From: an uncultured virus (IMG/VR IMGVR_UViG_3300025168_000062)
Taxonomy: Duplodnaviria > Heunggongvirae > Uroviricota > Caudoviricetes
Virus record (IMG/VR): IMGVR_UViG_3300025168_000062
DNA length: 64,000 nucleotides
Direction: 5' to 3' (one strand)
In this document: piece by piece, positions 2,882 through 57,199 of the stretch
Layout: the number at the start of each line of letters is the position of its first letter
Numbering within the stretch: the stretch's first letter is position 1
Position numbers and translations under genes: made by a program
Notes under the pieces: model-generated
Told to the model about the DNA's origin: nothing
Seen by the model: the letters and a program-made list of their open reading frames with translations, nothing else
Database searches by the model: none

Positions 2882-3052
2882 TCTTTTTTCTCTCCACAGG
2901 GGCGGGACCTATGTGCCGAGACCTTTGAAGTTCTCAGGTCGAGCAAAACTACACACAGGGGCGGGACCTTGACCGCGAGACCTTTGAAGTTCTAGGCTCG
3001 AGCATGTAGGCTAGCGGGAGAGCTCGAGAGAGCTCGTCTTTTAGAGAGAGAG

Positions 3053-5934: not shown

Positions 5935-6058
5935 ACTTTACACCTCCGCTTATGCCACAAACCGGACATAGCCCTAATATATCTAAAAATATGTCATGGT
6001 CCATATAAGGGGCGGAGATAGAGTTCTCTCCGCAATATTGACAATAAATCACGTTCAT
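5927..6058 (-). CDS. Small zinc-finger protein (43 aa)
   Basis: MNVIYCQYCG...LCPVCG; overlaps both neighbours; contains the GGAGGTG SD of terL. Confidence 0.65.
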   Translation of the reverse strand: MNVIYCQYCGENSISAPYMDHDIFLDILGLCPVCGISGGVKYE

Positions 6059-35900: not shown

Positions 35901-38900
35901 TAATAGTGCTCGTGGCTTAATACCAATATCACAAAACTTCGCAACAGGTATGGGGAGGTTTGATGCAAGCAATACTAAACAATGGAGTTCTTATTACACA
36001 AACAACGTATGGACTCTGAATGACAACCAAGTGGTTACCTCCAATATTGCGGCGACTGAAGAAACGATAGATAATAATAGTGATGGTCAGAGTGATTCTT
36101 TTATTAACAATACAGTATCTAAAGCAATGAGTATACAGTTTGATAATGGAGATGAAAATTATGCTCCTACTGGTGTGCCTAATTTTAGAGGTTATACTTC
36201 TTACCAATTCAAACCTTTGGGTGTGATAGAGTTAAAACATAACAGTATTTATCCACTAATCGACTTACATGGTTTAGGAACGGTAGGTCCTTTGTTTAAT
36301 TTTAACGATGGAAGATTATTGCCTACTTCTTCTGACGCTTATGATTATAGACACGCGTTAGAGTATGTTGGAACAATAGGAACGACATTCAGAAGTCAAT
36401 TATTTAGTATTGTTGATTATTACCGCGCCTTTAGAAAAACTCTAGAAAAACATAGTAGTAATGGTAGGGAGATTATAGGCACTCCCGAAGGAACAGTTAG
36501 TCAAGCACCTAGAACCACAGGGGTAGGTATTGACTATAACCTAAGAATGCTTATTAGGGGTAATGATATAGACCAAAGAGACCCTCATAAGATACCTTCT
36601 CTTAGTGTGACCGAAAATAGTTTAGGGGCAAGCGATACATATGAAGGAAGAGCAACTAACTTTATACAAAGAGGAAACACAGGTATTAAAATAACAGCAC
36701 AAAGCGGTTCGGGCTCTAACATCCAACTGACTATAACTACTTCACAAACTTTTCAATTACCATTCTCAGGTTTTGGAACATTTGGACCTAATGGAACCGC
36801 ACAAGGTTTGTTTAGATGGACTGGGGTTGATGATACTAACCACAAACTAACAGGGGTTACTATATTAGCATCGGGCTCTACTTCATTAGCACAGCATATA
36901 AGTAATAATACGGCATCACTTACACCCTTTATTTTTCCTGTAATATCAACTAACCAAGCATTATTTACTCCACCTACTGCAAGACAACCAAAACAACAAT
37001 ATAGAGTTGCACACGCTTCTTATATGCACGATATTGCATCCTCGATGTGGTTTAGAATGGTGTTCGGTATCATAGAAGAGCAGGCGGCAGGTGTTGATGG
37101 ACCACCACATAATGAAAAGGCTAGAAGGGGTAATAAGTTAAGTAATATGGTAGGTAATAGTTTGAGCGGTTGGCACTACCAAGAACGTGAAGGTGAAAGT
37201 AATGACCTATATACTACACAGTATAGCGACTACTTTACACTAAGAAGCGCATACACAGCAGGGGGAACGACATTAGTTTTAGATAAAGCAACACCCCCAC
37301 TTATTGATGAAAACTTTAAGGATAGGAGATATATAGACAAAGGTAGTCTTTCATACGATACAGGCACAGACCCACTAATAAGTATTCCTTCTAGAGCAAA
37401 TGCACACTCAACTAAGAGACAGATGCTCAATGGTGGTTTGGTATTTGAAATAGAAAACCCCAACGGAACTCTAGATGTGGGGGCGGCAAGGTCAGCACAA
37501 ATGACTTCGTGTGCTGATGATACGGCATCGTTCACGCATTGGGAAATAGTAAAACTCACACAAAGCGAGATAGTTAATACACTAAAACCTAACACAGCAG
37601 ATATAGATGAAAATAATAGTTTCGTAGGTGGTGATTGGACTATGCCTAACAAGAGCACTATTACATCATTCCCCGGTCCAATAGTATTAACGGCCGCACA
37701 TAATCCCTCTAATTTATTAACAGGAAATAAACCTGCCTATACTGACAATAGACTATTCGACCCAGACTTTTTCCATAGTGGTAATGACGAAGCAGTATCA
37801 GGAGCAAGAATGTTCCAAAGCCTAGATATAGGAGATATAATATTTGTTGGTAATACACAAGGCACTATTACTAATCAACCCATTACCGGCTCGTTAGATT
37901 CACACTATAATGTGGATAATCATTATGGGGAAGATAGAGATTTTGTATCATATAGATGGTATAGGATTCTTGATAAAGCCACCGACCATTCAACAATTAC
38001 TATATTCCCCGCAGAATATTCTTACTGTAATCACGATTTACAATCAGATAATGGAACATACATAAACAGACATCCGGTAGGTATGCACATTGTCGCTCAT
38101 GATGCCGTAGGTCAGTTCAAAGGTTGGTATAATAAATTAAAAAGAGGAGCAGATGCAAACGATTATCAAGGAGACTTACCCTCTGGATTTCCTACTGTAA
38201 AACAACCTATCTGTAAAATATACTCTGGTGATATTACAATAAGTGGCGTAAAGCATCTTAAAAACAATCATCTTGCAGGTGCAAAGGGTAGGTTTAGAAG
38301 AATTAGAAATAACTTTAATCATGTTTGGTTAAATTGGGCTGATATGAGAAACGATGGAAGCGCAGACGCAGATGGTTCATTTAGACAATCTAAGTTTGGC
38401 TTACTATACCCAACAGAAGAGCAGTATAGTGTTGATTTAGTATTTTCTAGCACACAAGCAGACATTACTTCACTAGGAATAGGAAGTGATGTAGACCTTT
38501 GGGAACTAACAGACACAGACCCTTTTACGAATGGTGCTTGGTCTGCTAACTATAATAACAAGATAACTAATATGACTCACTTGCATGATTGGGAGTCTAA
38601 AGCAGGAGCACCTATTGCTGTTGATGCTAGTAAGTATTTCAACCTAAACACTATGACAAATAATGGAAAAATAGGTCAAACTTCGGGAGGCACTAAAAAT
38701 ATTGCAGATTATGATTATACAGTTTCGGGTAATGCTCAACTTATGGATAATTATTGGTGGCAGGCAGGTCCTCACCCATATACTGCTAAGTATAGACACC
38801 CTTATGACCCTAACTTCCAATTTTATGTTAGATACGAAACTAGATTAGCAGAAGATTTAGATGGTAAGCCATTAATGTTAATAGACTCATCTAATCTTTA

Positions 38901-41900
38901 TCACGGTAGTTATTTTAACGACACTAAAAGTGTGGGAATTATGGAATCAGTAGATGCGGATGATGACCAACTAAATACATTCACATACAAAATGGGGGGT
39001 TGTTTTGTCAATAAGTATGATGAGAACCAAAGTAATGCTCAAAGACTATACATGGGATTAGGTGCAGAAAAGGTCGATAAGTCGGTTGGTGTATGGACTG
39101 ACCCAATAGGATATAGTATGGGTAATACACAGTCTAGCGAAAATAATAGTGGGGGCATAGTTTCTAATGGAGAACATACTGTCTATAACGCATGGGCTTC
39201 ACAAATGGGGCTAGGTTCTATGATGGTAATGCAAGGTCATGTGGAATCTAGAGGTTCAAACACTTACTATGACCACGATAAGATTAGAATAATTTTTCAA
39301 TCACATAATACAGAATCATGGTTATCCGGTTCACAAATCCCCTGTTCTTACGACATTAACAACGTGCCTATATCTTATGATATGACAATAGATTCATTCG
39401 GTTCAGTAATGGATGGAAGAGGGACAACAACATTACGAATGATTTCTAATATTAGAAAATCTTCCGGTAATGGCGATGCGGGTAATTACCAAGCATTTAA
39501 CTATATGATTGGAAGAAACGGAAGGTTCGAGTATAGACCTACTTATAACTCAGGAATTAGTCTGACTAGAAATGACTTAAATAAATCTGATGTTGACCAA
39601 GAAGCAAGAGCTCAATTTACACACGTTAGGATTTATTACAATAATGGTGAATCATTTGTTGATACTCCAACACCTATACTTGATGGTTCACAAGTTAAGT
39701 TTAAGATGCTAAACCTACCATCGGTAAGAAGTAGCACAGAAGCAACTGCGGCAGGGGATAGGGAATTAGAGAGAGTTAGGGATAAAGAAATAACTGTTCT
39801 TGCTACAATAAAAGATGATACAAAGGGTTTATTCACAGGCGGTCTGTATGGATATATCTCCACACCATTAGTCCAATGTCTTTCGGGTCTTGCTAGTAGT
39901 TATGGCTCGTTTTTCCCACATGGAAATCTTACAGGCCAAATTATAGGCGGGAGACAAAATGCTATGGATGGTAATTTAGATGCTACTAATTCTTCACTAA
40001 TAGGTGCTACGTCAAGTATGGCTTTCCTTGATACGGGCTCTGGTAATCACGGTGGGGGTGGGTGTAATACTTATGATACCCACGCTACTAAATGGTATGG
40101 TCAATACACGCCATACGGTATTCATTGTATAGAAAAGGCTGTTCAAATAGTGCATATACCAAAAGGAGTTCCAAAAGTAAGCACAGGGTCTAATCAAAAA
40201 CTAAGAATGTTTATTACTCATAAATCCGCATCTGCTAACGGGGCAGAGTTTAGGCTTTGGTTGATAGATTCACATTTCGATTCACAGAGAAGACAGGGCT
40301 ATACGGGTAATAACCCATTAACTACTGCTAAGATTTCATACTTAGACATAACTAAAAATGGATTTCATGAAATATCATTCCCAACGTCATACGGAGCTCC
40401 TAGCGGGGCTAAGATGATAGTATCATTCAATAAAGAGTATTGTATGGACTTACTAAAATATAGAAGTAATCATACGACAAGTTCTAAGTCAAACAAAGGT
40501 AATAGAGTAACAACATTACCTTCAACAGATGTTAGTCTATTAGACCTTTCGCATGGTAATCCGGTCAATGAAGCATCGGCATTCCCGTTAGGATTGTCTC
40601 TATATTATAGGCCACATGGTTCAGAAGATTCACAAGGCAGACAAGGACCGTTATGGCAACTTAGACCAAGAGCACTATACTACGCCCCTAGTGTTGAGAT
40701 AGTGGATGACTTTGCGTATAGGGTAGGAACTGACTTAAACTATAATGATGACCACCTAAGCATAAATACTTCACTTACTGTTAGTAAGTTAAATTGGAAA
40801 ATAAAAGAACAAGATAACGAAGAATTAGAATTGAGATTAATAAAAAATAAATCACAAGAAGTTAAATATTTAAGTTTAGGTGTTGGAACGACCCCTACGC
40901 CGCCACAAGCAGGCAACCCACCTTCTAATGGTGGTAATGGTCTACCAGGAGGCGGTTTAGGTGACCAGATACCATATTTACCGGGAGATGACATAGGCGG
41001 AGCTCCGGGTTGGGGTGGGTTGAAACCACCACAAAGAGGAGGCATGGGTTCACAACATGAATTATCAGGCGGTATTACTAAAGCAAGCAGAATAAGCAAT
41101 ATATCAGGAGCACCTGTTCAGAATGTTGGCGGTCTAGGAAGCACTATGACTGGTAGTAAGGTTGGGATTAGTAAAATGAGCAAAGGTGCTACTAATACTA
41201 TCAAAGGTATTGACAAAATAGATGGAGAAAGATGGACTAATAAGCAAGTAATAAAAAATAAATCTACTTCAAAAGAAGCAATAGGGCAAGTTAAATCGAC
41301 TAGCAGTGGTAGTGCTGTTATAGGAGCAGATGGATTTACTCTACCGGGTGTATCAGCATTGTTTGCAGATGGAACAAGCATCCCTGCTAAGGCAGATTAC
41401 CACGAAGGCTCTACAACGATAACTGTTCCTAGTGCAGTATCTAATGACAAAATAAGTGTTGTGCTTACTGTAAAAGCACCTTTAACCGGCGGCGGGAGCA
41501 AATACACTCTGTTTTCCACACTAGAATGTATAGAAACAGGGGAAATGCAACGTAAAGTAGTAAGTATAACAGCAGATGATACACCAAAAAGAATTGCTCT
41601 ATTCACAACAAGAAAATTAATAGGTGCGGGAACGGTAGGTAATAGAATTAAAATCACAGTTGGTCGAGTTCCCGGAGGTGGTTTGCTTGCTAATCCCGAT
41701 GGTGATGATGACTCACCGTTTTCATCAATGAAAATAAAAAGTATAGAAGTATCATTTAATGAAACGAGCAAAGGTAAAGATACAGGTATTATTAGCACTA
41801 GGGATAAGATAACTACGAAAGATAATACACAAGGATTTATGAGCGGAACAGATAAAGCGTGGGATTCAAAAACTTCTGATGCTACATTTGACGCTTCCGG

Positions 41901-41991
41901 TAATGTGGTCTATACTAGAAAAGGTAAAGCCGCGTCTAACGCGCTTAGAAAATCAGATGGAACAGGCGGTTATTCTGAGGATGTGCTCTGA
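32995..41991 (+). CDS. Giant tail-tip/baseplate-hub and adhesin protein (2998 aa)
   Basis: Only gene after tape measure; beta-rich; hub-like segments (YWNGFLDKV...SRDAIGRL; GRFEYRP); Pro/Gly linker near C-terminus. Confidence 0.75.
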   Translation: MTRHMMNHNSQTRKYTSGQPFDEDYQVWLSGYWEDFTSSYSLPEASSNTLNLSDTHFGNPLNAEARLNPHYRWSYADRTSTYSGATVYGAGMVTNDIKELHNLSMAEWFSVDPVRLGKGRDFTSKINNEYLDSHAHSNRYRLGGKGELDSYILMTTSHVAGGKYIIDNGEIDSSFARSDSVGYNFSQTAGITGAVNTSYASSNGAVLNAALIDYSEVFNDSGQDAKVFRTVSASTTGSFTIDTAPTDILTTGTWSSNQHAAYILGAEIKSPSRTPFLAIRNTMPVTHRINGDVAPTGTDGVWRYTGAKRELHHFRVGDIVQVGKHDEYAVIQAFNSDKTSITKLYSLSRNQLLNVSKFKSTSGDYIEGGASESNVDIRKWFEPVMTYDGSLNCVGDGDTFHIRYCPLVVKSNGLPDSDRVAHYILRVGFDSSRLNMTSKGNRYELSGSDYNPSHSCAAIQFEIQPHSTSEAQKIDHNVNLVRVSSLDSSIASAHKQSFIDYDATSTITTPNYSNEWQQWMDIDVVMDFTNQRYKVYVDGFESGTFNFETKPSGGSWVASDLYGWHMDHASLQKDGSYTPDNGGNEYALTAGKFWGPKSEITTTMWTLIDRAGIVNEITNPVRNSPNSIVAANDLSIQEITYDAGINETSRLSMLIIDDDNERQIQDIFSSSPSEWMVLLFKNGIDSIYWNGFLDKVRVTQDGKKKTRTIQLISRDAIGRLDGIMPYWEVGQNELTISTNYKYREAEARMVSENFYFGARALLRGNETIGMDHQTRAKDSYASTTEIGAISGYYTSRYDQRTRLYSANPIQMYVGQDDFGPKVDSDVYNTAPTAEHSDKNIWRQWNTRKILGFSDGRSMGQKYIVAHCIEHGLSVNDEFKIYGEHHTNAFTTTSAGVNGLDIVVKKIIDIHHFAFEYKSSVGNIFGHLGDEAGHFWSVITRHTDKHGLGFDLGSTSPYTYTGWAQGNFSSNSARGLIPISQNFATGMGRFDASNTKQWSSYYTNNVWTLNDNQVVTSNIAATEETIDNNSDGQSDSFINNTVSKAMSIQFDNGDENYAPTGVPNFRGYTSYQFKPLGVIELKHNSIYPLIDLHGLGTVGPLFNFNDGRLLPTSSDAYDYRHALEYVGTIGTTFRSQLFSIVDYYRAFRKTLEKHSSNGREIIGTPEGTVSQAPRTTGVGIDYNLRMLIRGNDIDQRDPHKIPSLSVTENSLGASDTYEGRATNFIQRGNTGIKITAQSGSGSNIQLTITTSQTFQLPFSGFGTFGPNGTAQGLFRWTGVDDTNHKLTGVTILASGSTSLAQHISNNTASLTPFIFPVISTNQALFTPPTARQPKQQYRVAHASYMHDIASSMWFRMVFGIIEEQAAGVDGPPHNEKARRGNKLSNMVGNSLSGWHYQEREGESNDLYTTQYSDYFTLRSAYTAGGTTLVLDKATPPLIDENFKDRRYIDKGSLSYDTGTDPLISIPSRANAHSTKRQMLNGGLVFEIENPNGTLDVGAARSAQMTSCADDTASFTHWEIVKLTQSEIVNTLKPNTADIDENNSFVGGDWTMPNKSTITSFPGPIVLTAAHNPSNLLTGNKPAYTDNRLFDPDFFHSGNDEAVSGARMFQSLDIGDIIFVGNTQGTITNQPITGSLDSHYNVDNHYGEDRDFVSYRWYRILDKATDHSTITIFPAEYSYCNHDLQSDNGTYINRHPVGMHIVAHDAVGQFKGWYNKLKRGADANDYQGDLPSGFPTVKQPICKIYSGDITISGVKHLKNNHLAGAKGRFRRIRNNFNHVWLNWADMRNDGSADADGSFRQSKFGLLYPTEEQYSVDLVFSSTQADITSLGIGSDVDLWELTDTDPFTNGAWSANYNNKITNMTHLHDWESKAGAPIAVDASKYFNLNTMTNNGKIGQTSGGTKNIADYDYTVSGNAQLMDNYWWQAGPHPYTAKYRHPYDPNFQFYVRYETRLAEDLDGKPLMLIDSSNLYHGSYFNDTKSVGIMESVDADDDQLNTFTYKMGGCFVNKYDENQSNAQRLYMGLGAEKVDKSVGVWTDPIGYSMGNTQSSENNSGGIVSNGEHTVYNAWASQMGLGSMMVMQGHVESRGSNTYYDHDKIRIIFQSHNTESWLSGSQIPCSYDINNVPISYDMTIDSFGSVMDGRGTTTLRMISNIRKSSGNGDAGNYQAFNYMIGRNGRFEYRPTYNSGISLTRNDLNKSDVDQEARAQFTHVRIYYNNGESFVDTPTPILDGSQVKFKMLNLPSVRSSTEATAAGDRELERVRDKEITVLATIKDDTKGLFTGGLYGYISTPLVQCLSGLASSYGSFFPHGNLTGQIIGGRQNAMDGNLDATNSSLIGATSSMAFLDTGSGNHGGGGCNTYDTHATKWYGQYTPYGIHCIEKAVQIVHIPKGVPKVSTGSNQKLRMFITHKSASANGAEFRLWLIDSHFDSQRRQGYTGNNPLTTAKISYLDITKNGFHEISFPTSYGAPSGAKMIVSFNKEYCMDLLKYRSNHTTSSKSNKGNRVTTLPSTDVSLLDLSHGNPVNEASAFPLGLSLYYRPHGSEDSQGRQGPLWQLRPRALYYAPSVEIVDDFAYRVGTDLNYNDDHLSINTSLTVSKLNWKIKEQDNEELELRLIKNKSQEVKYLSLGVGTTPTPPQAGNPPSNGGNGLPGGGLGDQIPYLPGDDIGGAPGWGGLKPPQRGGMGSQHELSGGITKASRISNISGAPVQNVGGLGSTMTGSKVGISKMSKGATNTIKGIDKIDGERWTNKQVIKNKSTSKEAIGQVKSTSSGSAVIGADGFTLPGVSALFADGTSIPAKADYHEGSTTITVPSAVSNDKISVVLTVKAPLTGGGSKYTLFSTLECIETGEMQRKVVSITADDTPKRIALFTTRKLIGAGTVGNRIKITVGRVPGGGLLANPDGDDDSPFSSMKIKSIEVSFNETSKGKDTGIISTRDKITTKDNTQGFMSGTDKAWDSKTSDATFDASGNVVYTRKGKAASNALRKSDGTGGYSEDVL

Positions 41992-44738: not shown

Positions 44739-45107
44739 TCACTCTTCTTCTGCGAATGGATTGTCTATATGAGAAAATCCTGTCATACATTCTTCGACTT
44801 CTTTACCGTCTTTGTCTATTCTGTTAGGACAGACCGGCATAGCCTGTATTTCTTCAAACGCATGAGGATAGATTATTTTCATACCGCACCCACTACATTC
44901 TTCTTTAGCCGCTAGACCTGCGTCTAATAGATGAAGATGTAAAAGTGTTGTCATATTCTCAGCGTGTTTGCTAAAGTCAATAAACACACTCACTAATTGA
45001 TTATGCTTTTCCTCAATCAAATCCACTTTTTCTTTCATTTCTCTTAAGTCTTGTTGCATGACCTGTTTTACTGTCATTTTCTTCGGTGTTCGCTGTCCTT
45101 TCATTAT
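44739..45107 (-). CDS. Coiled-coil and zinc-finger hypothetical protein
   Basis: CSGC...CP; ATG overlaps the polB end. Confidence 0.6.
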   Translation of the reverse strand: MMKGQRTPKKMTVKQVMQQDLREMKEKVDLIEEKHNQLVSVFIDFSKHAENMTTLLHLHLLDAGLAAKEECSGCGMKIIYPHAFEEIQAMPVCPNRIDKDGKEVEECMTGFSHIDNPFAEEE

Positions 45108-47305
45108 AACCACTCTACTGTTTTTCTTCCCTTCTTCGCATCGTATAGTGGAGCCATATCCCAAGATGCTATTTCATAGAAAGGCTTAACTTTCTCTAAA
45201 ATATATCTGTCAGACATTGTCTCGTAACCTATCCCAATGGTTGCTGGTAGTTCTTCCACCTTGTCAAAAGATATAAACCTTCCGTTATTATCTATCAATA
45301 ACCAAAAATATGAACCTTTTCTATATTCTTTTCCTAAGTGGGTATTAGCCCAGAGCGCACCTGCGGCTGAACCACCTATGGTCTTATAGTCCTTTAGGTC
45401 TTTCTTTAGTTTACCTTTCATCTTTAACTCGTCAAGGGATATGCTACCATCTATTATATTATGTATCATACCGCAGACTTTCTCAGTAACACTTTCTTCG
45501 CTTTTACCGTCAAGCATAGAGTTTATAGTTGAGTTCATAGCGTCTTTCATTATCTGAGGCATCCTTGCTTGTTTAGATTCAATCCCCTTGATATAATAGT
45601 CGGGTTCGTGGTATTTACCATCAGTCCATACTACCTTACCTGCGTATCTATTCTTAGCCTTAAGAAGCATACGCTCACAATACTTTTCAAACTCAGTTTC
45701 AATAGGAGCCATTTCTTTATTAATCCAATCCATCATCTCCATACCTGCTTCGGGGGATTCAACAGTTACGAAAACAGAATCAGTATGACCATATATAACA
45801 TCACAGCCCCATTCAATACACTTATCCCTTAATGTGAAAAGAGTGTTTCTTGACGTGCGAGTAATAGCCGCCGCTACCGCAGGGTGATACATACCGAATC
45901 TGCTATCACCACATACTCCATACAGTGAAGCCACTAAGGACTTTGTTGCGAACTGAGCCGAATCCCATTTAGTCTTTTCGTCTTTGGTTGTCGAAGCCTT
46001 CATATTACCCTTGTATTCATTTCTTAAATCCGTAAGTAGGTTCATAGCGCGACCTAACGCGCCTGTTGGTGCATCAGTATCGAATACTGCATTCTTCTCA
46101 TCAAGCAGTGTTTCCCAAGATATATTATATTTGGTCACATTACTATGATACATGGCTTTTATATCCATGATAGCAACTCTTTCATATAGCCCTGCTACCG
46201 GTTCTTGTATATCTGCACCTTGATATTCCTCGTAAGCGAACTGCGCTTTGGATGGCATTTGCCAATCTATCTCTTCATCACGCATAAATAATACTGTTGC
46301 TAATCTAGTGACCCAAGGAGTTGTTGCTATATCACACTGAACAATATGCTGTAAATTAATATAGTGGTCGATACAGTTAAGCATCTTATCTAGTTTGGGA
46401 AGTAAGGCTACGTCTTGTATGTTATAGTCAATGTATAGACCGATGTCTGTATAGTATGTATCATGCCCATTAGGTAAATCCATCTTTTCCTCATCATCAA
46501 GAACAAACTGCGAAACATCCTTAAGACTTTGACCTGGTAGTTGCCCGTTCTTTATTCGCCACAACTTACAAAATACAGTCATAAGGTCAATAGTAATTCT
46601 GCCTTTGATACACTGCGACCAGTCATCGAACTTATACCTAACAGAACCGTGTGGGCTCATTCTTTTACCTGCATTCCACCCATACCTTTTACAAGACTCA
46701 AATAAAACCCTCATATCAGCACCCATAAAAAACCAACCTGTCAATACATCGGGGTCTTTCTTCATCATTACATGAAAGAAATCATCTAACAACTCTTTTT
46801 CAGTAGCGAATGCTTTTAGTGGGGGATTGAAAACCTTGTCTCCTAACTTTGAAACCAAAGGTGGATGTGTTTGACCGGGAGGCGATACAAACCAAGTTAG
46901 ATACTTACCCATGTAATTATCATACACGGTCGCAACTGTTACTTCTTCCTGTTCATTCCATTCAAGGTCAACATACCATACACGATGCTTATAGAATGGA
47001 TAGTCTTTACCATTATCCATAAGTGCTCTATTAGTGAATGGGATATTACATTCCCATGTCTGTGAAAACTTATCTTTTAATTGTAATACTTCATAGGGGT
47101 CAGCAAGTGTAACCTTAGTTAGTTCTTCGCCATAAAGACCTGTGAACCCATCTTCCTTTTTTACAGCAGATATTAAATCCGCTTCTGTTGTTTTAAGAAA
47201 CCCATAAGGATAAATGTCGTTAATAATGTCTTGCTTTCGGTCAAGTGTTACAGGGTCACGATACCTTACAGCAACTCTTCTTCCACCTAAACCATCCACT
47301 ATCAT
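45104..47305 (-). CDS. polB: Family B DNA polymerase
   Basis: Exonuclease DLE; DIKAMYHS, KSLVASLYG, YGHTDS and KNRY motifs. Confidence 0.96.
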   Translation of the reverse strand: MIVDGLGGRRVAVRYRDPVTLDRKQDIINDIYPYGFLKTTEADLISAVKKEDGFTGLYGEELTKVTLADPYEVLQLKDKFSQTWECNIPFTNRALMDNGKDYPFYKHRVWYVDLEWNEQEEVTVATVYDNYMGKYLTWFVSPPGQTHPPLVSKLGDKVFNPPLKAFATEKELLDDFFHVMMKKDPDVLTGWFFMGADMRVLFESCKRYGWNAGKRMSPHGSVRYKFDDWSQCIKGRITIDLMTVFCKLWRIKNGQLPGQSLKDVSQFVLDDEEKMDLPNGHDTYYTDIGLYIDYNIQDVALLPKLDKMLNCIDHYINLQHIVQCDIATTPWVTRLATVLFMRDEEIDWQMPSKAQFAYEEYQGADIQEPVAGLYERVAIMDIKAMYHSNVTKYNISWETLLDEKNAVFDTDAPTGALGRAMNLLTDLRNEYKGNMKASTTKDEKTKWDSAQFATKSLVASLYGVCGDSRFGMYHPAVAAAITRTSRNTLFTLRDKCIEWGCDVIYGHTDSVFVTVESPEAGMEMMDWINKEMAPIETEFEKYCERMLLKAKNRYAGKVVWTDGKYHEPDYYIKGIESKQARMPQIMKDAMNSTINSMLDGKSEESVTEKVCGMIHNIIDGSISLDELKMKGKLKKDLKDYKTIGGSAAGALWANTHLGKEYRKGSYFWLLIDNNGRFISFDKVEELPATIGIGYETMSDRYILEKVKPFYEIASWDMAPLYDAKKGRKTVEWL

Positions 47306-47790
47306 ACTAAGCCGTATGTGGGCTTAGTTATAACATTTGGGTATTTGTTAAAACAATCAAACCAATCCGCTATATCTTCTATTGCTTCGGCAGAAAAGGT
47401 TCTGACAAACTCCCAATCATTATGTGCTATGACCCAAGGATTTTCTTCTAGGCTTATACATAACTCATCATCTTCGGCAAACCATATAACCTTCTTGCCG
47501 GTCATGTGTGCATACATAATCTCCATACAGGTCCCTATGCTTAATTCTTTAGGAACATAATTGACTAGGATAACATCAGAACGGTCTATCATAAGTTTGT
47601 CTCGCGGCACTATCAATTCTTTGAATGCTTCGTCATAGTGAACCCCACCATGCTCTGCTGATACCATAGGATTGAATACTTCAAAACCTTTACTTGTTAA
47701 AATATTATAAGTAGTTTCTCTCCATCCTATTGAACGCCACCTTTCTTCATCTTCAAGAATAGGACCGCATAGATAGAAGGTTACGCTCAT
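47302..47790 (-). CDS. Nucleoside 2-deoxyribosyltransferase / nucleotide N-glycosidase family protein
   Basis: YLCGP, FNP, D...IDRSD, SIGTCME.MYA...K motifs. Confidence 0.85.
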   Translation of the reverse strand: MSVTFYLCGPILEDEERWRSIGWRETTYNILTSKGFEVFNPMVSAEHGGVHYDEAFKELIVPRDKLMIDRSDVILVNYVPKELSIGTCMEIMYAHMTGKKVIWFAEDDELCISLEENPWVIAHNDWEFVRTFSAEAIEDIADWFDCFNKYPNVITKPTYGLV

Positions 47791-48164
47791 TCAATACGCC
47801 TTCCCCGAGGTCTGCTAGGAATGTCTAGTTTTCTCAACCATTGATTAATAGTCATTGGACTTACACCACATAAGTCTCCTATCTGCTTAAGAGTTAAACC
47901 CTTACCCCAATAGTTTTCATTCAGCCATGAATGATTTCTATATGGTTTAGAGGTATCAGCCTCGCCTGTGGTTAAAAGATACCATACTCCATCTTTAACG
48001 AATCTTACATTCGCTTTACAGGGTATTAATTCTTGTATTCCATCTTGTTCTTCATCTATTACTATTGCGTATTTTACTTCTGTCATTTGTTTTGGCTTCC
48101 CGCCTATGGGCTTTCTACTATTACGGAAGAGGCATGGGGTTATAAATCTTTGGATTACAGCCAC
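47787..48164 (-). CDS. HTH DNA-binding protein
   Basis: LTLKQIGDLCGVSPMTINQWL. Confidence 0.75.
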   Translation of the reverse strand: MAVIQRFITPCLFRNSRKPIGGKPKQMTEVKYAIVIDEEQDGIQELIPCKANVRFVKDGVWYLLTTGEADTSKPYRNHSWLNENYWGKGLTLKQIGDLCGVSPMTINQWLRKLDIPSRPRGRRIE

Positions 48165-49093
48165 TCTGTATAGTTTCTTTTTTCAAAGTAAGAGGCTTTT
48201 AATTCTTTCGTCATTTTCATAGCGGGTATAGTCTTGTATATCTTATTTACAACAGACGGTCTTAGTTTCTGCTTTGCTATCTTACTGGCCGCACCCCTAA
48301 CTGCCGCACCTCTATTTACATCAATATTATTATGGCCTATTTTTTCTTCCCATGCTTTTGAAGCATAGTGGAGAAGAACAGGTGTCATATTCTTTATTAA
48401 CTTATTATCGTAGTCTTTACAGGCCGTATCATATATTAGACCGTTGTCAGTCCTATGTGAAAGATGATACCCTATACATTTATCCCCTTCCATAATGGTC
48501 AGAAGAAGTGCATCTTCTAATTGTGAATAGGCATTGAACGAGTCAATAAAGAAATTAGATTTCCATGATTTCTTATCCCTTTGTTTTAACCATCGGCCGG
48601 TCAAAGCATTACACGATTCTAGCGTTTTGTATGGGGTGTTGCCCCAATGAACCTGTATATCTATCGCGTCTGAGTCGATAAGCGACTCAGCCTTGTTACA
48701 TGGCTTTCTTAATTGGTTCTTATTCACCCCGTATCTATCGCTGAATGCCCTAAGATTGTATATGTATTCTTCATTATCAAACACACATTTGTCACTCGAA
48801 TACCCATAATCTATGAGGCTAGGAATACCTGCATCGTTTAATTTACTCACCACATCATAACTTGATGGTAGGATAGCATACAATACTTGAGTTCCCATAA
48901 TCTGTCTATCTTTTAGAACGACTAATTCATCGTCAATATATCCTAACTTGAATACATGAGGTTGGTGCATCAATCTAAGGGGGGATTCATAGTATCTAAT
49001 TAACCTACCACAAGTCATAGATGAAAGCCCTTGATAGAACTCGGTATAGTTTTCTAATGTTAGTGGCTTGAACTCGCTTAAGTCTAAAGCCAT
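48155..49093 (-). CDS. DUF2156-like (aminoacyl-transferase C-terminal, GNAT fold) protein
   Basis: EYIY...G.NK..LRK..N and VNRG...K.KLRP patterns resemble this family; recognised by eye only. Confidence 0.6.
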   Translation of the reverse strand: MALDLSEFKPLTLENYTEFYQGLSSMTCGRLIRYYESPLRLMHQPHVFKLGYIDDELVVLKDRQIMGTQVLYAILPSSYDVVSKLNDAGIPSLIDYGYSSDKCVFDNEEYIYNLRAFSDRYGVNKNQLRKPCNKAESLIDSDAIDIQVHWGNTPYKTLESCNALTGRWLKQRDKKSWKSNFFIDSFNAYSQLEDALLLTIMEGDKCIGYHLSHRTDNGLIYDTACKDYDNKLIKNMTPVLLHYASKAWEEKIGHNNIDVNRGAAVRGAASKIAKQKLRPSVVNKIYKTIPAMKMTKELKASYFEKRNYTEWL

Positions 49094-50262
49094 TCAATAT
49101 CCTCTGTCTTATCTTCAACATCAAGGTAATGAAACTCATCCTGTATAGTCTTTGGGTCACCCTTGAAGAAGATTAAAACATTCTGATGAGTTTTTCCTAA
49201 CTTTCTATTGTTAGCAAACTGTTTGTGGACTCTTATAGGAAGGCTACCTGCAACCGTGATTAAGATACATTCATTGTATAAGGTAGCACCTGCTGATTGG
49301 AAAGCATCAATAGTGTCGCTTACAAAGTTTCGATAGAATCCTTTTTCATTCCTAAAGTCTCCAACAACAAACACTGCGAACCTATTAGGTTTGAGCATAT
49401 CAACAGAACGCTGAATAATATTTCTATATGAATCTAAAAACTCGTGGTGTTCCATAGTGGATAAATCCCTATCATCTTCTGAATAGACTTCAAGGTCACC
49501 ATAGGGCGGGCATGAAAATACCATATCCCACTCGCCACCTATCTTATCTTTTATGTCTAGCGCATCTCCAACAACCCAATTAGGCATAGGGAAATCTGTA
49601 TTACCTACTAACTCTAACCCTTGAATCCTATTAGCCTGAACTTGGTCGGAACGTAATTCCATACCCGCATACTGATGATTACCATGTGCGGCAACAATTC
49701 CTCTTACAGAACCACCGCAGAAAGGGTCAAGAATATTACCACCTTCGGGGCAAAACCAATTATACATTAATTCAGTTAATACAGGGTCGAATATAGAAGT
49801 GCCTGTTGCTCTTTTCTGAAAGCCATCTTCTTCTTTTAGGGCGGCACTTGTTGTTCCGTCCTCATTCTTATGAAGCCATGCACTATTTTTACCTGTGCCT
49901 CCTCCGGGTATTGCTCTAGTATCTTTCTTAGTTTCATTCCATGTTGCTTTGTCTCCAATAGCGAATGTCTTAGCATTACCTTTTGAATCTCCACCTACCG
50001 ATACTTCTTCATCACTTAAAAGAAATCCTTCTTTGACAAGTTGGTCTACATCATATTCTTTTTTACCAAACATATACTTCATGTTCGACTTTGACATAGC
50101 AATAAGTGCTTCACCCCTACCTAGTTCTGAACGAATACCTTTACGAGTCCACCAACGCTTTCGGTCTTGCCAATAGCCTTGGCGAGCATCTAATATACTG
50201 AAAGGCGGTGCGCCATATCTCTTTTTTAGTGGTGTTCTTATTATATGTTTTTCTAAACTCAT
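49084..50262 (-). CDS. DNA amino-methyltransferase (m6A/m4C type)
   Basis: Motif I LDPFCGGS then motif IV FSCPPY. Confidence 0.88.
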   Translation of the reverse strand: MSLEKHIIRTPLKKRYGAPPFSILDARQGYWQDRKRWWTRKGIRSELGRGEALIAMSKSNMKYMFGKKEYDVDQLVKEGFLLSDEEVSVGGDSKGNAKTFAIGDKATWNETKKDTRAIPGGGTGKNSAWLHKNEDGTTSAALKEEDGFQKRATGTSIFDPVLTELMYNWFCPEGGNILDPFCGGSVRGIVAAHGNHQYAGMELRSDQVQANRIQGLELVGNTDFPMPNWVVGDALDIKDKIGGEWDMVFSCPPYGDLEVYSEDDRDLSTMEHHEFLDSYRNIIQRSVDMLKPNRFAVFVVGDFRNEKGFYRNFVSDTIDAFQSAGATLYNECILITVAGSLPIRVHKQFANNRKLGKTHQNVLIFFKGDPKTIQDEFHYLDVEDKTEDIEWL

Positions 50263-50456
50263 TCTGCATCATATCCTCTGTTGTGTTTTTTCCAAGCCTC
50301 AAATAGAGGTATTATATCTCCTGACTCAAATATAGTGCCGGAGGTCATGTGAATTAGGAACGGTTCATTGTCGAAGGGTTCTGTTAATGCTGATATATCT
50401 CTTATATCTATCCAAGTTATACCTGTTGAAGTCGATACGGGTATTATTAATTTCAT
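50259..50456 (-). CDS. Small hypothetical protein
   Basis: 65 aa; ATGA overlaps on both sides. Confidence 0.65.
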   Translation of the reverse strand: MKLIIPVSTSTGITWIDIRDISALTEPFDNEPFLIHMTSGTIFESGDIIPLFEAWKKHNRGYDAE

Positions 50457-50950
50457 TCTTCTTCATCTCCATTACAGCATCCACCTGCGCAATCGTCGCA
50501 CTGTGGTTCATAACAATGTTCACAATCCCAAGTATCATTTGCTCTAGTTTCTGAACCACAATTACAAATCATCCATGAAGAATCTAGTTCTCCGTTAAGC
50601 GTTACTTTACCTTCGTGTTGGTCTACTAATATCGTAGGTTTTGACTTATGTAATATACCCAAGTTGGTAGGGTTTTCATGGCAACACTCGATAGGAACGA
50701 TAGCCAATAAACCTGCATCAACTGCCATTTCACCACCACTAAAATGCCAACAACCATCTCCTCCCGGAGAAGGATAGACTTCTATTTTGTATGTCTCTTC
50801 TGAAAGAGTTCCTTCATTCATAGTCCAATCTAATTCTGCTTCGTAATCTTCGTTTTGCTCAGCCCAAAGTAATTCACAAAACTCATGCCATCTATTATCT
50901 TCTATAACATAACAGGGGTCGCCTGTATAGTATTTGACTTCGTGTAATTC
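50453..50950 (-). CDS. Acidic hypothetical protein with C-terminal Cys cluster
   Basis: YTGDPCYV...VDAGLLAIVP; GAGGTGA SD before GTG near 50953; start approximate. Confidence 0.6.
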   Translation of the reverse strand, partial: ELHEVKYYTGDPCYVIEDNRWHEFCELLWAEQNEDYEAELDWTMNEGTLSEETYKIEVYPSPGGDGCWHFSGGEMAVDAGLLAIVPIECCHENPTNLGILHKSKPTILVDQHEGKVTLNGELDSSWMICNCGSETRANDTWDCEHCYEPQCDDCAGGCCNGDEEE

Positions 50951-50958
50951 CACGAATC

Positions 50959-51780
50959 TCACCTCTTGATTACTGCCGCTTGGAATACCCAATCGCCATT
51001 GTCGAATACAATCAATAGTCTAATACCCTGTCCTTCCGGTCTAAAATCTATGAAGTATAGTTTGACCATACTATCATAGTTAGATAGCATTTGTTCTAAA
51101 CCACCTTCAAAGGTTGTTGAAAAGTCCTCACCAAAAGGTGTATCTTCATTAAGTATTGTCTCAGTCTGTCCTTTCAAATCGCTACCGGTTAGAACGTATA
51201 ATGTTTCTTTACCGTCGTGCTGAAAGGTATATTGATTAAGTTTCTGACCATTCATGTTATCACATCTTAAAGCCTCATGAAGAAGGTTAGATGATGTTTC
51301 AGCCATGTGCATAGGTAGTCTTTTAGACCCATCACGCATGATATAGCATCCGGCATCAACGTCTATTTGATTAGACATAGTTACCGATTTATCCTCCCAC
51401 TGTGCGATTGTTTCTTGACTGTGTGGGAATGCTAGACTACCCGGCTCAGCAACTAATGTTGTTTGTTTACCCGAACTCTTTATTTTTAGCGAACCATTCA
51501 TTTGAGTCATAACCACTTCTCCACTATGCGCTGATATAACCCCTAATGTTCTTTCGATGTCGGGGATAACTATTGCATCTTCATTTTCTGACCATGAACA
51601 GGGGATTGAAAACTTACCAAGACTCGTCTTACCATCTCTGACTAGACTTGTTGTGGTGGCACTATCCCCGTTGGGTCTAATAACACAACCAATAACCTGT
51701 TGTTGAGGTTTCGCATTCACGAATTGCTTTCTTGCTGTTACTTCTAATAATCTCTTGAGGTTTCCCGTCTTGACTAACAT
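50959..51780 (-). CDS. Putative divergent DNA sliding clamp (PCNA-like)
   Basis: About 270 aa with alternating helix/strand pattern; close to the RFC gene; TTTATAAG box at 51803-51810. Confidence 0.5.
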   Translation of the reverse strand: MLVKTGNLKRLLEVTARKQFVNAKPQQQVIGCVIRPNGDSATTTSLVRDGKTSLGKFSIPCSWSENEDAIVIPDIERTLGVISAHSGEVVMTQMNGSLKIKSSGKQTTLVAEPGSLAFPHSQETIAQWEDKSVTMSNQIDVDAGCYIMRDGSKRLPMHMAETSSNLLHEALRCDNMNGQKLNQYTFQHDGKETLYVLTGSDLKGQTETILNEDTPFGEDFSTTFEGGLEQMLSNYDSMVKLYFIDFRPEGQGIRLLIVFDNGDWVFQAAVIKR

Positions 51781-54335: not shown

Positions 54336-55238
54336 TTATTCGCTTAGAAATCGGCAAAACTCCCAAATTACATACACTTCGGGAACACCATTTATTAGGT
54401 CTCGCCTTGCTTGGATGGATGCTTGGACTACTCTCATCTTGTTTTCATGGTTGTTCATGGTAGCATCGACTGCTTTTAAGAACACTTGATGTATCGCTTC
54501 ACGAGCAGGTGCTACGCTAAGTATCTTGACCGCTTCGGGAACATTACCCATTTTGAAACACATGGTCAAAACTGAACCCGCATTGATTTCCGGTGTGCTA
54601 ATAGAGGCTATGAATCCTTTACGGTCTATGGGGGATAAGTAAGAGGCCGCTTGAAGCGCACCGATAGCATTTCTCATATCACCACCATGCTTATTGATAA
54701 TAACTTTCAAATCTTCTTCTGTCATCTCTACCGCTTCCATAACACAGATATGTTTCAAACGCTCCATAACTAAATCATCGGGTATTGGATTGAATGTTCT
54801 GACTTGACACCTTGACTTGAGCCAAGGAGATACTTTGTTCAAATCATTACAAGTAAGTATGAAAAATCCTTGAGCGTTTTCTATAACTCCTTTTAGTGCG
54901 TCTTGTGCTGTGGGTGTTATCCTATCTGCCTCGTCAAGAAGAAATATAGTTTCATACTGTCCGATACGAGACATAGGTCCTATATCATCTTCAACGAAAT
55001 CTATTCCCCTTTGTTTCTTAGTCGAAGCATTAAACTCATGCAATTGGTAAAGTAATTCATCTGCCATGACACGAGCCATAGTTGTCTTACCACTACCCGG
55101 CTCAGGACTATGGAATAAGAAATGTTGCATCGGTGCATCACCATTGACAATCGCTCGCATTTCAGATACTACCGAATCCTGTGATAATACTTCATCCAAC
55201 TTCTGTGGTCTATATTTTTCAGCCCAAATTACTTTCAT
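54336..55238 (-). CDS. rfcS: Replication factor C small subunit (clamp loader)
   Basis: WAEKYRP, PGSGKTT, LDEAD, SRC, GDMR. Confidence 0.93.
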   Translation of the reverse strand: MKVIWAEKYRPQKLDEVLSQDSVVSEMRAIVNGDAPMQHFLFHSPEPGSGKTTMARVMADELLYQLHEFNASTKKQRGIDFVEDDIGPMSRIGQYETIFLLDEADRITPTAQDALKGVIENAQGFFILTCNDLNKVSPWLKSRCQVRTFNPIPDDLVMERLKHICVMEAVEMTEEDLKVIINKHGGDMRNAIGALQAASYLSPIDRKGFIASISTPEINAGSVLTMCFKMGNVPEAVKILSVAPAREAIHQVFLKAVDATMNNHENKMRVVQASIQARRDLINGVPEVYVIWEFCRFLSE

Positions 55239-56357: not shown

Positions 56358-56543
56358 TTACTGTTCCAACCACATAGCATAGTCTGCGAGGTCGTCATAC
56401 TTTTCAGTATCTCTCTTATTCAGATAATTCCGGCTACTAATTTTTGGTTCAAAAATATTGAAAAAAAGGTTTATAAATCTCATAACATAGATTAGCACAA
56501 AGATAATCAAAGGAGATAATAGGGCAAGTTGTATCACAACCAT
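56358..56543 (-). CDS. Small membrane protein
   Basis: N-terminal hydrophobic helix. Confidence 0.55.
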   Translation of the reverse strand: MVVIQLALLSPLIIFVLIYVMRFINLFFNIFEPKISSRNYLNKRDTEKYDDLADYAMWLEQ

Positions 56544-57199
56544 TCTATCAGCGTCTCCTTAGTTTTCTTTATAGTAGGTGGTGCTTGGTCTATGGTTCTT
56601 AACTTATTCCTTACTTCGGGGGCGTTAGCAACAATCATATCTGCATAAACATCGGTAGACCTGAATCCGAAGGGGATTATTGAATCATCCTTTATTTTCT
56701 TCTTAGGCCACGATACACTACTCTGTAATGCCTTCGTGCCAAAGACCAAAGCGGCTTTAGCATAATCTTCTTCCATCTGATATCTCGCCATACTTACTAT
56801 TCTTTGTTCTTCAATCCCCTGCGGTCTATTGACTTTATGGAATGCTTCTGCAAGAGCAAGTGGGACAGGTTTCATAGCCTTCCATGCCCTGTTTCTATCT
56901 GACCACTTCATCATAGCATTGATTGGTGAATTGAAATTATTTTTACCCTTCTTAGCGGAATTATGGATTAGTATATTATTACCTTCACGAACACCCTTAA
57001 TCCCCTTTCTAGGTATCACTACAAGACGATATTGCACCAATTCAGCCCATTCTTTTGCCATAGATAGGGGGAATGATTCACAATGTAAAATATAGGTAGT
57101 GTCCGGTGCTGTGGGGGGCGATGTCAGTTCACCATACATCAAAATATAGTCTCCGCTCCTAAAAGAAGCATCATCACCTGCGTAAATTATTACACCCAT
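56534..57199 (-). CDS. Hypothetical protein
   Basis: 221-aa ORF in operon; ends LIEWL. Confidence 0.65.
   Translation of the reverse strand: MGVIIYAGDDASFRSGDYILMYGELTSPPTAPDTTYILHCESFPLSMAKEWAELVQYRLVVIPRKGIKGVREGNNILIHNSAKKGKNNFNSPINAMMKWSDRNRAWKAMKPVPLALAEAFHKVNRPQGIEEQRIVSMARYQMEEDYAKAALVFGTKALQSSVSWPKKKIKDDSIIPFGFRSTDVYADMIVANAPEVRNKLRTIDQAPPTIKKTKETLIEWL

Follow-up and report, generated by a model that had tools for sequence, protein, structure and literature searches.

A methylase and DUF2156-like gene pair next to the polymerase gene of an uncultured marine virus points to a possible, so far undescribed, route for decorating viral DNA during copying

To our knowledge, Mom of phage Mu, published in 2026, is the sole enzyme known to modify DNA from a charged tRNA. 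In the literature surveyed, the acceptors of characterised DUF2156 enzymes are hydroxyls of lipids, sterols and small molecules, and we know of no case where a nucleic acid takes this role. Clamp-binding peptides at the C-terminus are found in the T4/RB69 polymerase, in PIP boxes and in the bacterial QLxLF motifs. A search of the literature retrieved no paper joining DUF2156 with phage DNA modification, and none joining a methylase, a sliding clamp, a clamp-binding motif and a phage. Mom is a GNAT that transfers glycine from Gly-tRNA onto the N6 of adenine in double-stranded DNA (PMC13219725). M.EcoGIX and M.BceJIII are described as replication-associated beta-class amino-methylases with a DPPY motif (PMC7736820).

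The locus described here lies in a 64,000-nt stretch of DNA (the window) from a marine tailed virus, where four ORFs on the minus strand are followed by the gene of a family-B polymerase. The features of the region are as follows.

45104..47305, minus strand: family-B DNA polymerase (PolB), 733 aa, PF00136 at 6.7e-35, C-terminus VEWL
47302..47790, minus strand: nucleoside 2-deoxyribosyltransferase (NDT)/DNPH1-like N-glycosidase, 162 aa, PF05014 at 7.5e-10
47787..48086, minus strand: small HTH protein, 99 aa, HTH_23 at 8.9e-5, under the cut-off
48087..48154, minus strand: conserved 68-nt spacer from the DUF2156-like gene to the true HTH start, with stop codons in frame in the relatives L003 and L005
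48155..49093, minus strand: DUF2156/MprF-type tandem-GNAT protein, candidate aminoacyl-tRNA-dependent transferase, 312 aa, C-terminus TEWL
49084..50262, minus strand: circularly permuted N6/N4-type DNA methylase (predicted), 392 aa, PF01555, phrog_12517 and phrog_498
50259..50992, minus strand: two small ORFs of 65 and about 179 aa in the gap between clamp and methylase
50959..51780, minus strand: sliding clamp, 273 aa counted from a conserved ATG, identified with AF2 and Foldseek
54336..55238, minus strand: RFC-like clamp loader with AAA, RFC-lid and DNA_pol3_delta2 matches, phrog_168 at 6e-44
56534..57199, minus strand: 221-aa protein, C-terminus IEWL, the fourth protein of the window with an xEWL ending

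The preliminary description had four overlapping genes running directly into polB. Its coordinates and three of the overlaps hold, with all four ORFs on the minus strand: the methylase gene shares 10 nt with the 312-aa ORF, as it does in 11 of 11 loci, and overlaps of 4 nt each join the HTH and NDT-like genes and the latter and polB. No overlap joins the 312-aa ORF to the HTH gene: in L003 and L005 a stop codon interrupts the 125-aa HTH frame (47787..48164) among its opening 26 codons, which places the true start at the ATG at 48086 and gives a protein of 99 aa; the spacer before it is near-identical to that of L003 at the nucleotide level. The methylase lies directly upstream of the DUF2156-like gene in all 11 IMG/VR loci reaching that far, HTH and NDT-like genes follow downstream in 11/11 relatives, and PolB comes next in 9/9. 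The dN/dS values relative to L003 are 0.07 for the methylase, 0.27 for the 312-aa ORF, 0.22 for the HTH gene and 0.19 for the NDT-like gene. The two small ORFs beside the clamp occur in some relatives only; neither matched Pfam, and the one of about 179 aa matches phrog_20074, to which no function is assigned. Searches of the 221-aa protein against Pfam, PHROG and the Atlas gave no match, nor did those of the window for Rfam families and tRNA genes or of both its ends for tandem repeats.

The annotation of the first gene as a methylase rests on a PF01555 match over the cut-off (42 bits against 26.7, E 1.3e-10) and on a SAM motif I, from which methyl transfer is predicted; the PHROG matches are phrog_12517 (1e-100) and phrog_498 (2e-81). 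The protein has an N-terminal segment 'PPFSILDARQG' and ends in IEWL. Motif I ('LDPFCGGS', near residue 179) comes before motif IV ('SCPPYGDLEVY', near residue 252), the reverse of the order in the beta-class enzyme 2zie. Cysteine takes the first position of motif IV, as opposed to (D/N/S)PP(Y/F), and the relatives keep [ST]CPPYxDLEVY. On this motif order and the CPPY, membership of the M.EcoGIX-type single-strand methylase class was rejected, as was a relation to ParB: the protein matches just the post-ParB segment of phrog_15396 and has no ParB_N domain. The family has 30 matches in cultured phage records. Among the best 120 longer relatives, 63 carry a PALP domain, and by our own tally of the table 10 are fused to a family-A DNA polymerase. 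A methylase::PALP chimera is present in Pseudanabaena phage Pam4, and in gp1 of Erythrobacter phage R6L the match to the window methylase falls into two parts that lie apart.

For the 312-aa protein, the structure model and the profiles point to a DUF2156/MprF-type tandem-GNAT fold, in agreement with the DUF2156/GNAT-like identity first given to it. Foldseek on the model finds 2hqy at 8e-12, and the modelled fold is tandem as in aaPGS and 2hqy, a bare tandem GNAT aligned over residues 4-293, with no extra or membrane domain. A broader profile of 51 sequences (A6) reaches 2hqy (2.6e-11), L-PGS (1e-7) and MprF (5e-4) among PDB sequences, where a profile from the 13 close homologues only gave nothing meaningful. 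PF09924, whose gathering score is 27.5 bits, does not match the window protein at E<=0.1; eight of the 13 close homologues give a match at E<=1, the strongest at 1.7e-6, and the distant relatives P0031, P0022 and P0023 pass its cut-off with 42.1, 36.4 and 35.5 bits. The Mom family PF25680 likewise gave no Pfam match at E<=0.1, and the modelled fold is tandem, not a single GNAT. A tblastn search of 50,697 phage records found no match to the protein, and locus searches with smaller alignments returned one new and two already-known viral loci, six metagenome loci and no genome locus.

The donor of this enzyme could be an acyl-CoA, as in ordinary GNATs, with DNA still the substrate. We consider this unlikely: the best 24 VIA-align rows list 2hqy, an uncharacterised DUF2156 protein, and after it aminoacyl-tRNA-dependent transferases, and the most conserved family motif, sGkk..lR..lN (G122, K125, R129 and N133 in the window), aligns to the basic segments SGKKRAGLRAIYNRF of L-PGS and GGKWANLRQTASRA of MprF. 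A review assigns binding of the tRNA acceptor stem to a basic helix of this kind (PMC6103681); the motif may correspond to its 'helix 5 with basic residues'.

That the methylase and the DUF2156-like protein are coupled, as previously proposed, is sustained by domain fusions and by neighbouring genes in distant phage loci, as well as by the island and the C-termini described below. A methylase domain of N6/N4 type is present on six of 104 profile matches (P0027, P0036, P0037, P0045, P0060 and P0061), three of which additionally carry PALP. In five of the six fusions the methylase is of the window type and split into motif-I and motif-IV halves; the DUF2156-like domain is inserted between the halves in four, while in P0037 it lies upstream and the halves enclose PALP. 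Distant DUF2156-like relatives (23-31% identity) are located in phage replication modules, with a permuted or other N6/N4 methylase beside them in 5/7 loci and PALP in 4/7. PALP is absent from the window virus and its nearest record, G001, and no tRNA is encoded, so the fused systems may make a different product. Within the cassette loci themselves, which all belong to one clade, the co-occurrence of methylase, DUF2156-like and NDT-like genes counts as one event.

The interval from the sliding clamp to polB makes up a variable DNA-modification island in the related viruses. From clamp to HTH gene it is shorter than 500 nt in 45 of 59 loci, and the remaining 14 hold N6/N4 and C5 methylases, a TET-associated glycosyltransferase, ATPase-GNAT fusions, and PALP with a permuted methylase.

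The methylase and its neighbour are also linked by their C-termini. Four proteins of the window have the xEWL ending, namely PolB, the methylase, the DUF2156-like and the 221-aa protein, so that the replicative polymerase and both enzymes have the same extreme C-terminal peptide. On the first three it is kept in all relatives whose sequence covers the end of the gene, and it persists even where no downstream gene overlaps. In 61 further loci, W[LIVM] ends 46 of 48 PolB and 14 of 14 methylase-like ORFs, along with seven ATPase-GNAT-like ORFs, a PALP enzyme, C5 methylases, DpdA and a weak Mom-like protein. The ending was absent from the backbone families: clamp (0/57), HTH (0/40), AAA24 (0/53), g415 (0/39), RFC (0/20), g343 (0/33) and ERCC4 (0/29). 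Across about 60 related loci, then, the W[LIVM] ending is a mark of PolB and of DNA-modifying enzymes, not of backbone families. In other DUF2156-like clades, Q[LM]x[LM], a pattern taken from the beta-clamp motif, occurs in the last 12 residues of 8/93 proteins against 0.3 expected from internal windows; an aromatic C-terminal pattern (16/93) was defined post hoc on the same data and carries little weight. The protein at 50959..51780 (AF2 pLDDT 78.9; Atlas lead gp45), whose listed Foldseek matches are all beta clamps, PCNA or the 9-1-1 clamp, is proposed as the docking hub for the EWL tails.

These observations bear on what the DUF2156-like enzyme may act on. MprF is the best-known source of DUF2156, orphan methylases are frequent in viruses, and this methylase family has its 30 matches in cultured phages; the cassette could pair an orphan anti-restriction methylase with an unrelated MprF-like enzyme for lipid aminoacylation, serving to remodel the host membrane. 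Such a pairing seems very improbable in view of the bare tandem GNAT, the methylase fusions, the tail common to the polymerase and the conserved 10-nt overlap. A lipid acceptor is implausible, and the MprF-type lipid aminoacylase class was rejected on the missing flippase or membrane domain and the replication-module setting. An enzyme held at the replisome might instead acylate a replisome protein, for which the L/F- and R-transferases that acylate protein N-termini offer a model, or the end of DNA or of an RNA primer, or a nucleotide. There is some room for a non-base acceptor of this kind, though little: four fusion proteins have the DUF2156-like domain inside a DNA amino-methylase, and the identified tail-bearing enzymes besides PolB are all DNA-base modifiers.

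The two remaining genes differ from this pair. The HTH gene had been counted as part of the cassette, but 58 of 61 relatives with no cassette have it immediately upstream of polB; it is a core gene of the replication module, outside the methylase/DUF2156 module. The NDT-like gene is confined to the cassette-bearing clade. Its assignment to the N-glycosidase family stands, with PF05014 at 39.4 bits against a cut-off of 28.8 and, from the alignment, the catalytic Glu and Asp kept: relative to Lactobacillus NDT (1f8x), E90 corresponds to the nucleophile Glu98 and D64 to Asp72, and S84 occupies the place of Asp92. Serine at this position is presumably the DNPH1-like state, which leaves room for a 5'-phosphate, and the enzyme probably acts on free nucleotides.

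It had also been suggested that the methylase writes a GAG mark, which would explain the GAG pattern of the genome, and that the glycosidase clears the modified nucleotides. Some counts lean this way. Over seven shared replication genes, coding-strand CTC (template GAG) is the most depleted of the 64 trinucleotides when the cassette clade is compared with relatives without it (log2 -0.88; the two-G/C class has a mean of -0.15 and SD 0.23). With the cassette, GAGAG/CTCTC is seen 17 times where 67 are expected; without it, 1252 are seen where 1065 are expected. The NDT-like gene, too, counts here, being confined to the cassette clade. On the other side, coding-strand GAG is not depleted (log2 -0.06), the share of GAG codons goes with GC3, further pyrimidine triplets drop along with CTC, the cassette genomes are a single clade, and depletion of a motif is not what its own writer is expected to cause. 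The GAG void fails as a local feature: the window has 1427 GAG+CTC against 1638 expected, and its longest stretch free of both (1215 nt, 3050-4264) is exceeded by the longest gaps of CGT, CCC, CTC, CCG, TGT and GCC. Nothing ties the methylase to GAG, and we regard a GAG-writing role as highly unlikely. GATC and GTAC are absent and AGCT nearly so, which argues against a blanket modification that protects from all restriction.

Considering folds, homology, fusions, synteny and tail distribution together, we give slightly better than an even chance to the methylase and the DUF2156-like tandem GNAT forming a two-enzyme, tail-docked, replication-coupled DNA-modification module. Counting against it are the CPPY of the methylase, the missing PF09924 match of the window protein, the hydroxyl acceptors of the characterised DUF2156 enzymes and the single clade of the cassette loci. 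For its donor, acceptor, target base, chemistry, clamp binding and protective role we infer the following course. The xEWL tails would dock both enzymes on a hub shared with PolB, most probably the viral sliding clamp, although another hub could serve, and the docked enzymes would act on newly made viral DNA. The methylase domain may recognise its base, an adenine or cytosine, flip it out and place a methyl group on the exocyclic amine; the DUF2156-like enzyme may move an amino acid from host aminoacyl-tRNA to a DNA base or to a group already installed on one. The likely purpose would be to shield viral DNA from host nucleases.

More tentatively, and with a probability somewhat short of even, DUF2156-type aminoacyl-tRNA transferases could constitute a second, Mom-independent family of tRNA-dependent DNA modifiers, bearing W[LIV]-COOH as a clamp address label. 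On this wider account, held just as tentatively in each of its parts, the transferases would be built into a permuted amino-methylase scaffold or stand next to one, frequently accompanied by a fold-type-II PLP enzyme; many uncultured phages and archaeal-type tailed viruses might have bases bearing amino acids in their DNA; and the tail could recruit at least seven unrelated DNA-modifying families to the clamp beside the polymerase, with the genome modified during replication. If true, a second aminoacyl-tRNA family, unrelated to Mom and wired to methylases and PLP enzymes, would open a hidden class of DNA hypermodifications, for which phages Pam4 and R6L are cultured entry points. The tail suggests that viral DNA modification can couple to the replication fork via the clamp, and the shared W[LIV] offers a simple sequence rule for spotting DNA-modifying enzymes in this virus group.

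Among known systems, Mom resembles the protein described here in being a viral enzyme of the GNAT superfamily, and the proposed logic likewise takes its group from a charged tRNA and delivers it to DNA. Mom is, however, a single GNAT with an HTH-like insertion that forms a dimer, whereas in the window protein the GNAT is tandem and of DUF2156 type; this protein is paired, or in relatives fused, with an amino-methylase, bears the polymerase tail, and has a predicted activity. The synthase domain of MprF/aaPGS and the stand-alone 2hqy (PF09924) have a homologous tandem-GNAT fold, with the basic GxKxxxLR segment aligned; unlike MprF, the window protein is viral, belongs to a replication module, is free of a flippase or membrane domain, has a replisome-type tail and has methylase-fused relatives. 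The aminoacyl-tRNA-dependent peptide synthases FemX and Sbb17/Sba18, with peptidoglycan precursor and streptothrisamine as substrates, are farther away than DUF2156. DNPH1/MilB-type N-glycosidases and Lactobacillus NDT belong to the same PF05014 family as the NDT-like protein and have the same catalytic Glu/Asp, with Ser replacing Asp92 of NDT. M.EcoGIX and M.BceJIII couple an amino-methylase to polymerase or replication, for which the natural family-A polymerase fusions are the counterpart in the window's family; they differ from the window methylase, in which motif I precedes IV with CPPY and the proposed coupling is through the tail common to PolB. With the T4/RB69, PIP and QLxLF tails, finally, the xEWL peptide has in common that it is short, hydrophobic or aromatic, at the extreme C-terminus, and common to a polymerase and accessory enzymes. 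It differs from PIP boxes in reading x[E]W[LIV]-COOH and lacking their glutamine, and from all these tails in that its clients, putative binders of the clamp, are in this virus group mostly DNA-modifying enzymes.

Five consecutive genes on the minus strand of the window end in a family-B DNA polymerase (PolB):

49084..50262, minus strand, methylase ORF of 392 aa (Pfam N6_N4_Mtase, 42 bits, cut-off 26.7)
48155..49093, minus strand, DUF2156-like ORF of 312 aa
47787..48164, minus strand, HTH ORF of 125 aa as called (Pfam HTH models, all sub-threshold)
47302..47790, minus strand, nucleoside 2-deoxyribosyltransferase (NDT)-like ORF of 162 aa (Pfam Nuc_deoxyrib_tr, 39.4 bits, cut-off 28.8)
45104..47305, minus strand, PolB of 733 aa (Pfam DNA_pol_B)

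The preliminary description of four overlapping genes running into polB is correct in the genes and their order, and overlaps of 10 nt (methylase and 312-aa genes), 4 nt (HTH and NDT) and 4 nt (NDT and PolB) were observed. Judging from the related sequences, the real HTH gene is 99 aa long and starts at 48086; a conserved 68-nt spacer precedes this ATG, and two related loci (L003 and L005) carry a stop codon within the initial 26 codons of the longer frame. The 312-aa and HTH genes therefore do not overlap. The window belongs to a tailed virus with terminase, portal, tail tube, tape measure and collagen-like fibre genes, and with an RFC-like clamp loader, an ERCC4 nuclease and a PD-(D/E)XK nuclease in its replication module. 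The nearest cultured polymerases to its PolB, from haloarchaeal tailed viruses, share only 24% identity. Two collagen-repeat proteins of 870 aa (12686-15298) and 2428 aa (15401-22687), the larger with CBM_5_12 modules, are followed by a 2OG-Fe(II) oxygenase (23590-24147) that may be their prolyl hydroxylase, and a 2998-aa ORF occupies 32995-41991.

A Pfam scan of the 312-aa window protein gave no match. Twelve homologues with 39-88% identity were retrieved from a collection of 5.8 billion proteins, and PF09924 (DUF2156, LPG_synthase_C) was matched at E<=1 by 8 of the 13 family members (best 1.7e-6), the window protein not being among these eight. An AlphaFold model (pLDDT 85.6), for which the 13-sequence alignment served as input, retrieved the stand-alone DUF2156 protein 2hqy as the top Foldseek match (8e-12, TM 0.69), followed by A-PGS, L-PGS, MprF synthase domains, FemX and the aminoacyl-tRNA-dependent peptide synthases Sbb17/Sba18. 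A 51-member family profile searched against structure sequences likewise matched 2hqy (2.6e-11), L-PGS (1e-7) and MprF (5e-4), so the earlier prediction of a GNAT-like/DUF2156 fold for this gene stands. The most conserved motif of the family aligns with a basic stretch of L-PGS, SGKKRAGLRAIYNRF, which we infer from this alignment to be the acceptor-stem helix; according to a review (PMC6103681), all such transferases bind the tRNA acceptor stem through a positively charged helix. The DUF2156-like family is small: a search of 1.84 billion proteins gave 104 representatives at E<=1e-3, and relatives were found neither in 50,697 phage records nor in a single genome scan of 185,579 species genomes.

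Six of these 104 profile matches, all long proteins, also contain an N6/N4 methylase domain, together with a fold-type-II PLP domain (PALP) in three, ParB_N in one and a class-I methyltransferase in one. In five of the six, the window-type methylase matches as separate halves, a motif I half corresponding approximately to window residues 146-214 and a motif IV half to 210-376. Four fusions have the DUF2156-like domain between the halves, accompanied there by PALP in the protein P0060, and in P0037 PALP occupies that position with the DUF2156-like domain upstream. The window methylase is circularly permuted with respect to the beta-class structure 2zie, and motif IV reads [ST]CPPYxDLEVY across the whole methylase family. 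Distant DUF2156-like relatives were found at seven loci (six metagenome, one IMG/VR), within phage replication modules that also encode a family-A polymerase, DnaB, a clamp loader and RecA. Here the DUF2156-like gene adjoins PALP and a permuted methylase (L014, L019), lies beside an N6/N4 methylase (L017, L018, L020) or has a class-I methyltransferase and PALP as neighbours (L016, L017). A few genes from the DUF2156-like and methylase genes of L020, positions 5782-6357 encode a dATP/dGTP diphosphohydrolase N-terminal domain (PF18909, 4e-21), a domain family associated with diaminopurine genomes.

Longer relatives of the methylase family number at least 544 (E<=1e-10). In the best 120 of these, PALP is present in 63, a fused family-A DNA polymerase in 10 and an Asp/Arg-hydroxylase-type domain in 4. 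Among cultured phages, a methylase::PALP chimera of this kind is present in the cyanophage Pam4 (Pseudanabaena) and in the Erythrobacter phages vB_EliS_R6L and ZS04. The polymerase fusions are P0149, P0158, P0176, P0192, P0205, P0216, P0220, P0224, P0229 and P0232; further longer relatives are broken by intein or LAGLIDADG domains.

A polymerase search gave 70 related loci, of which 68 were analysed (L001 and L002 were left out). Across these 68, the methylase, DUF2156-like and NDT genes occur together in a single clade, whose PolB identity is 57% or higher, and the cassette-bearing loci lie on contigs already in the IMG/VR synteny set. The remaining 61 loci (L031-L091), with PolB at 33-52% identity, retain a backbone of clamp loader, g415, AAA24, clamp, HTH, PolB, PD-(D/E)XK and g343 (g415, AAA24 and g343 being gene families of the group), and none has a DUF2156-like or NDT gene within 5 kb either side of polB. 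Since the HTH gene is present upstream of polB in 58 of these 61 cassette-free loci, it is a core gene and its former assignment to the cassette is withdrawn. Of 59 loci, 45 have a slot shorter than 500 nt between clamp and HTH, and 14 have one of 0.9-3.5 kb. A scan of these slots retained 29 of 45 ORFs, the 16 dropped being overlapping alternative frames or short ORFs, and recovered N6/N4 methylases, C5 methylases, a TET-associated glycosyltransferase, P-loop-ATPase-GNAT fusions (~385 aa) and, in L054, a PALP enzyme adjoining a permuted methylase. Because the slots of relatives hold DNA-modification genes, the cassette is located in a variable DNA-modification island. In two loci (L053:1202-2366 and L072:1334-2306) the C5-methylase gene appears as two overlapping frames, of which the Pfam-matching one has no W[LIV] tail and the other ends EWI or EWL; a frameshift or faulty assembly could explain the split.

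In the window, PolB, the methylase, the DUF2156-like protein and a fourth product share an xEWL C-terminus:

56534-57199, minus strand, 221-aa protein of no known family, ending IEWL

The last may be an additional replisome client. W311 of the DUF2156-like protein is invariant in the 13 homologues, and the tails are kept in all relatives whose gene end is seen, including L011 and L012, where the stop codon has no downstream overlap, so the tail belongs to the protein itself and does not arise from overlapping genes. PolB ends in xW[LIVF] at 54 of 55 related loci. Over the 61 cassette-free loci, W[LIVM] ends 92 of 523 plus-strand ORFs of at least 100 aa, distributed as follows.

Plus-strand ORFs ending in W[LIVM] in the 61 cassette-free loci
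PolB: 46/48
Best match to window methylase: 14/14
PD-(D/E)XK: 5/38
Other ORFs: 27/151
Clamp: 0/57
HTH: 0/40
AAA24: 0/53
g415: 0/39
RFC: 0/20
g343: 0/33
ERCC4: 0/29

Among the 27 other tailed ORFs are seven ATPase-GNAT-like proteins, methylases of the N6/N4 and C5 types, the PALP enzyme, one homologue of DpdA (4.5e-52) and one Mom-family match that is weak and sub-threshold. Most modification genes of these loci end like PolB, and the DpdA and Mom-like ORFs lie outside the slot. The tail is thus a putative dock through which the polymerase and the DNA-modifying enzymes would share one hub, most probably the sliding clamp; the product of 50959..51780 has a predicted sliding-clamp fold (model pLDDT 78.9, with sliding clamps as all listed Foldseek matches). 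In other DUF2156-like clades, the last 12 residues contain Q[LM]x[LM], the bacterial beta-clamp motif, in 8 of 93 proteins (0.3 expected), and GFGF- or LDLF-type tails occur in 16 of the 93, a pattern defined post hoc from the same data.

The NDT-like protein has no tail and is confined to the clade with the cassette. Aligned with Lactobacillus NDT, its E90 matches the nucleophile Glu98 and its D64 matches Asp72, whereas the Asp92 position is Ser84; DNPH1 also has Ser at this position and so accommodates a 5'-phosphate. The protein may plausibly act on free, perhaps modified, nucleotides.

The methylase had also been proposed to write a GAG pattern. GAG+CTC occur at 0.87 of expectation in the window, within which no prominent GAG void was found. 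The ratio is 0.83 in relatives with the cassette and 0.99 in those lacking it; GAGAG/CTCTC was observed 17 times where 67 are expected in the former, and 1252 times where 1065 are expected in the latter. In seven shared genes the GAG codon share simply tracks GC3. Comparing the seven shared replication genes of the window and L026-L030 with those of L031-L091, the most depleted of the 64 trinucleotides in the cassette clade is coding-strand CTC (log2 -0.88; GAG -0.06), a real, modest between-clade difference that is partly common to other pyrimidine triplets and based on one clade. It does not point to a writer, and the GAG assignment finds no support. Avoidance of short palindromes in the window is extreme and far exceeds this difference: counted on both strands, GATC (0 observed, 373 expected), GTAC (0, 329), AGCT (32, 445), GCAGC (0, 67) and CCAGG (4, 75) are depleted, and CTATAG, ATGCAT and TTTAAA are each absent. 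GATC and AGCT are avoided in relatives too, less completely. That the window avoids GATC, GTAC, AGCT and GCAGC argues that a modification, if present, gives no general restriction immunity. Positions 1-3050 are GC-richer, hold 15 of the window's 24 GAGAG and contain two types of dispersed repeat, one of the form CAGGGGCGG(G)ACC...GACCTTTGAAG...CTCGAGC and one containing TTTATATAGTA, a possible promoter element, a short distance ahead of an ATG.

Corrected for the HTH start and its core status, the original observation is real, and the case for a DNA-modification cassette that includes a DUF2156-type GNAT has become considerably stronger. As the most likely mechanism, we give slightly better than even chances to replication-coupled modification, in which the methylase and an aminoacyl-tRNA-type transferase would dock on the clamp and modify viral DNA during replication, with donor, acceptor and clamp binding all presumed. 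Literature searches on DUF2156/PF09924 with phage, and on tRNA-dependent DNA modification with MprF, mostly covering sources other than subscription journals, returned no DUF2156 enzyme acting on DNA, and searches of the same coverage returned no paper on PLP-dependent methyltransferase fusions or on a methylase with a clamp-binding motif. In phage Mu, Mom uses Gly-tRNA as the donor to place glycine on N6-adenine of double-stranded DNA (PMC13219725), and M.EcoGIX and M.BceJIII are Pol I-linked, replication-associated methylases (PMC7736820).
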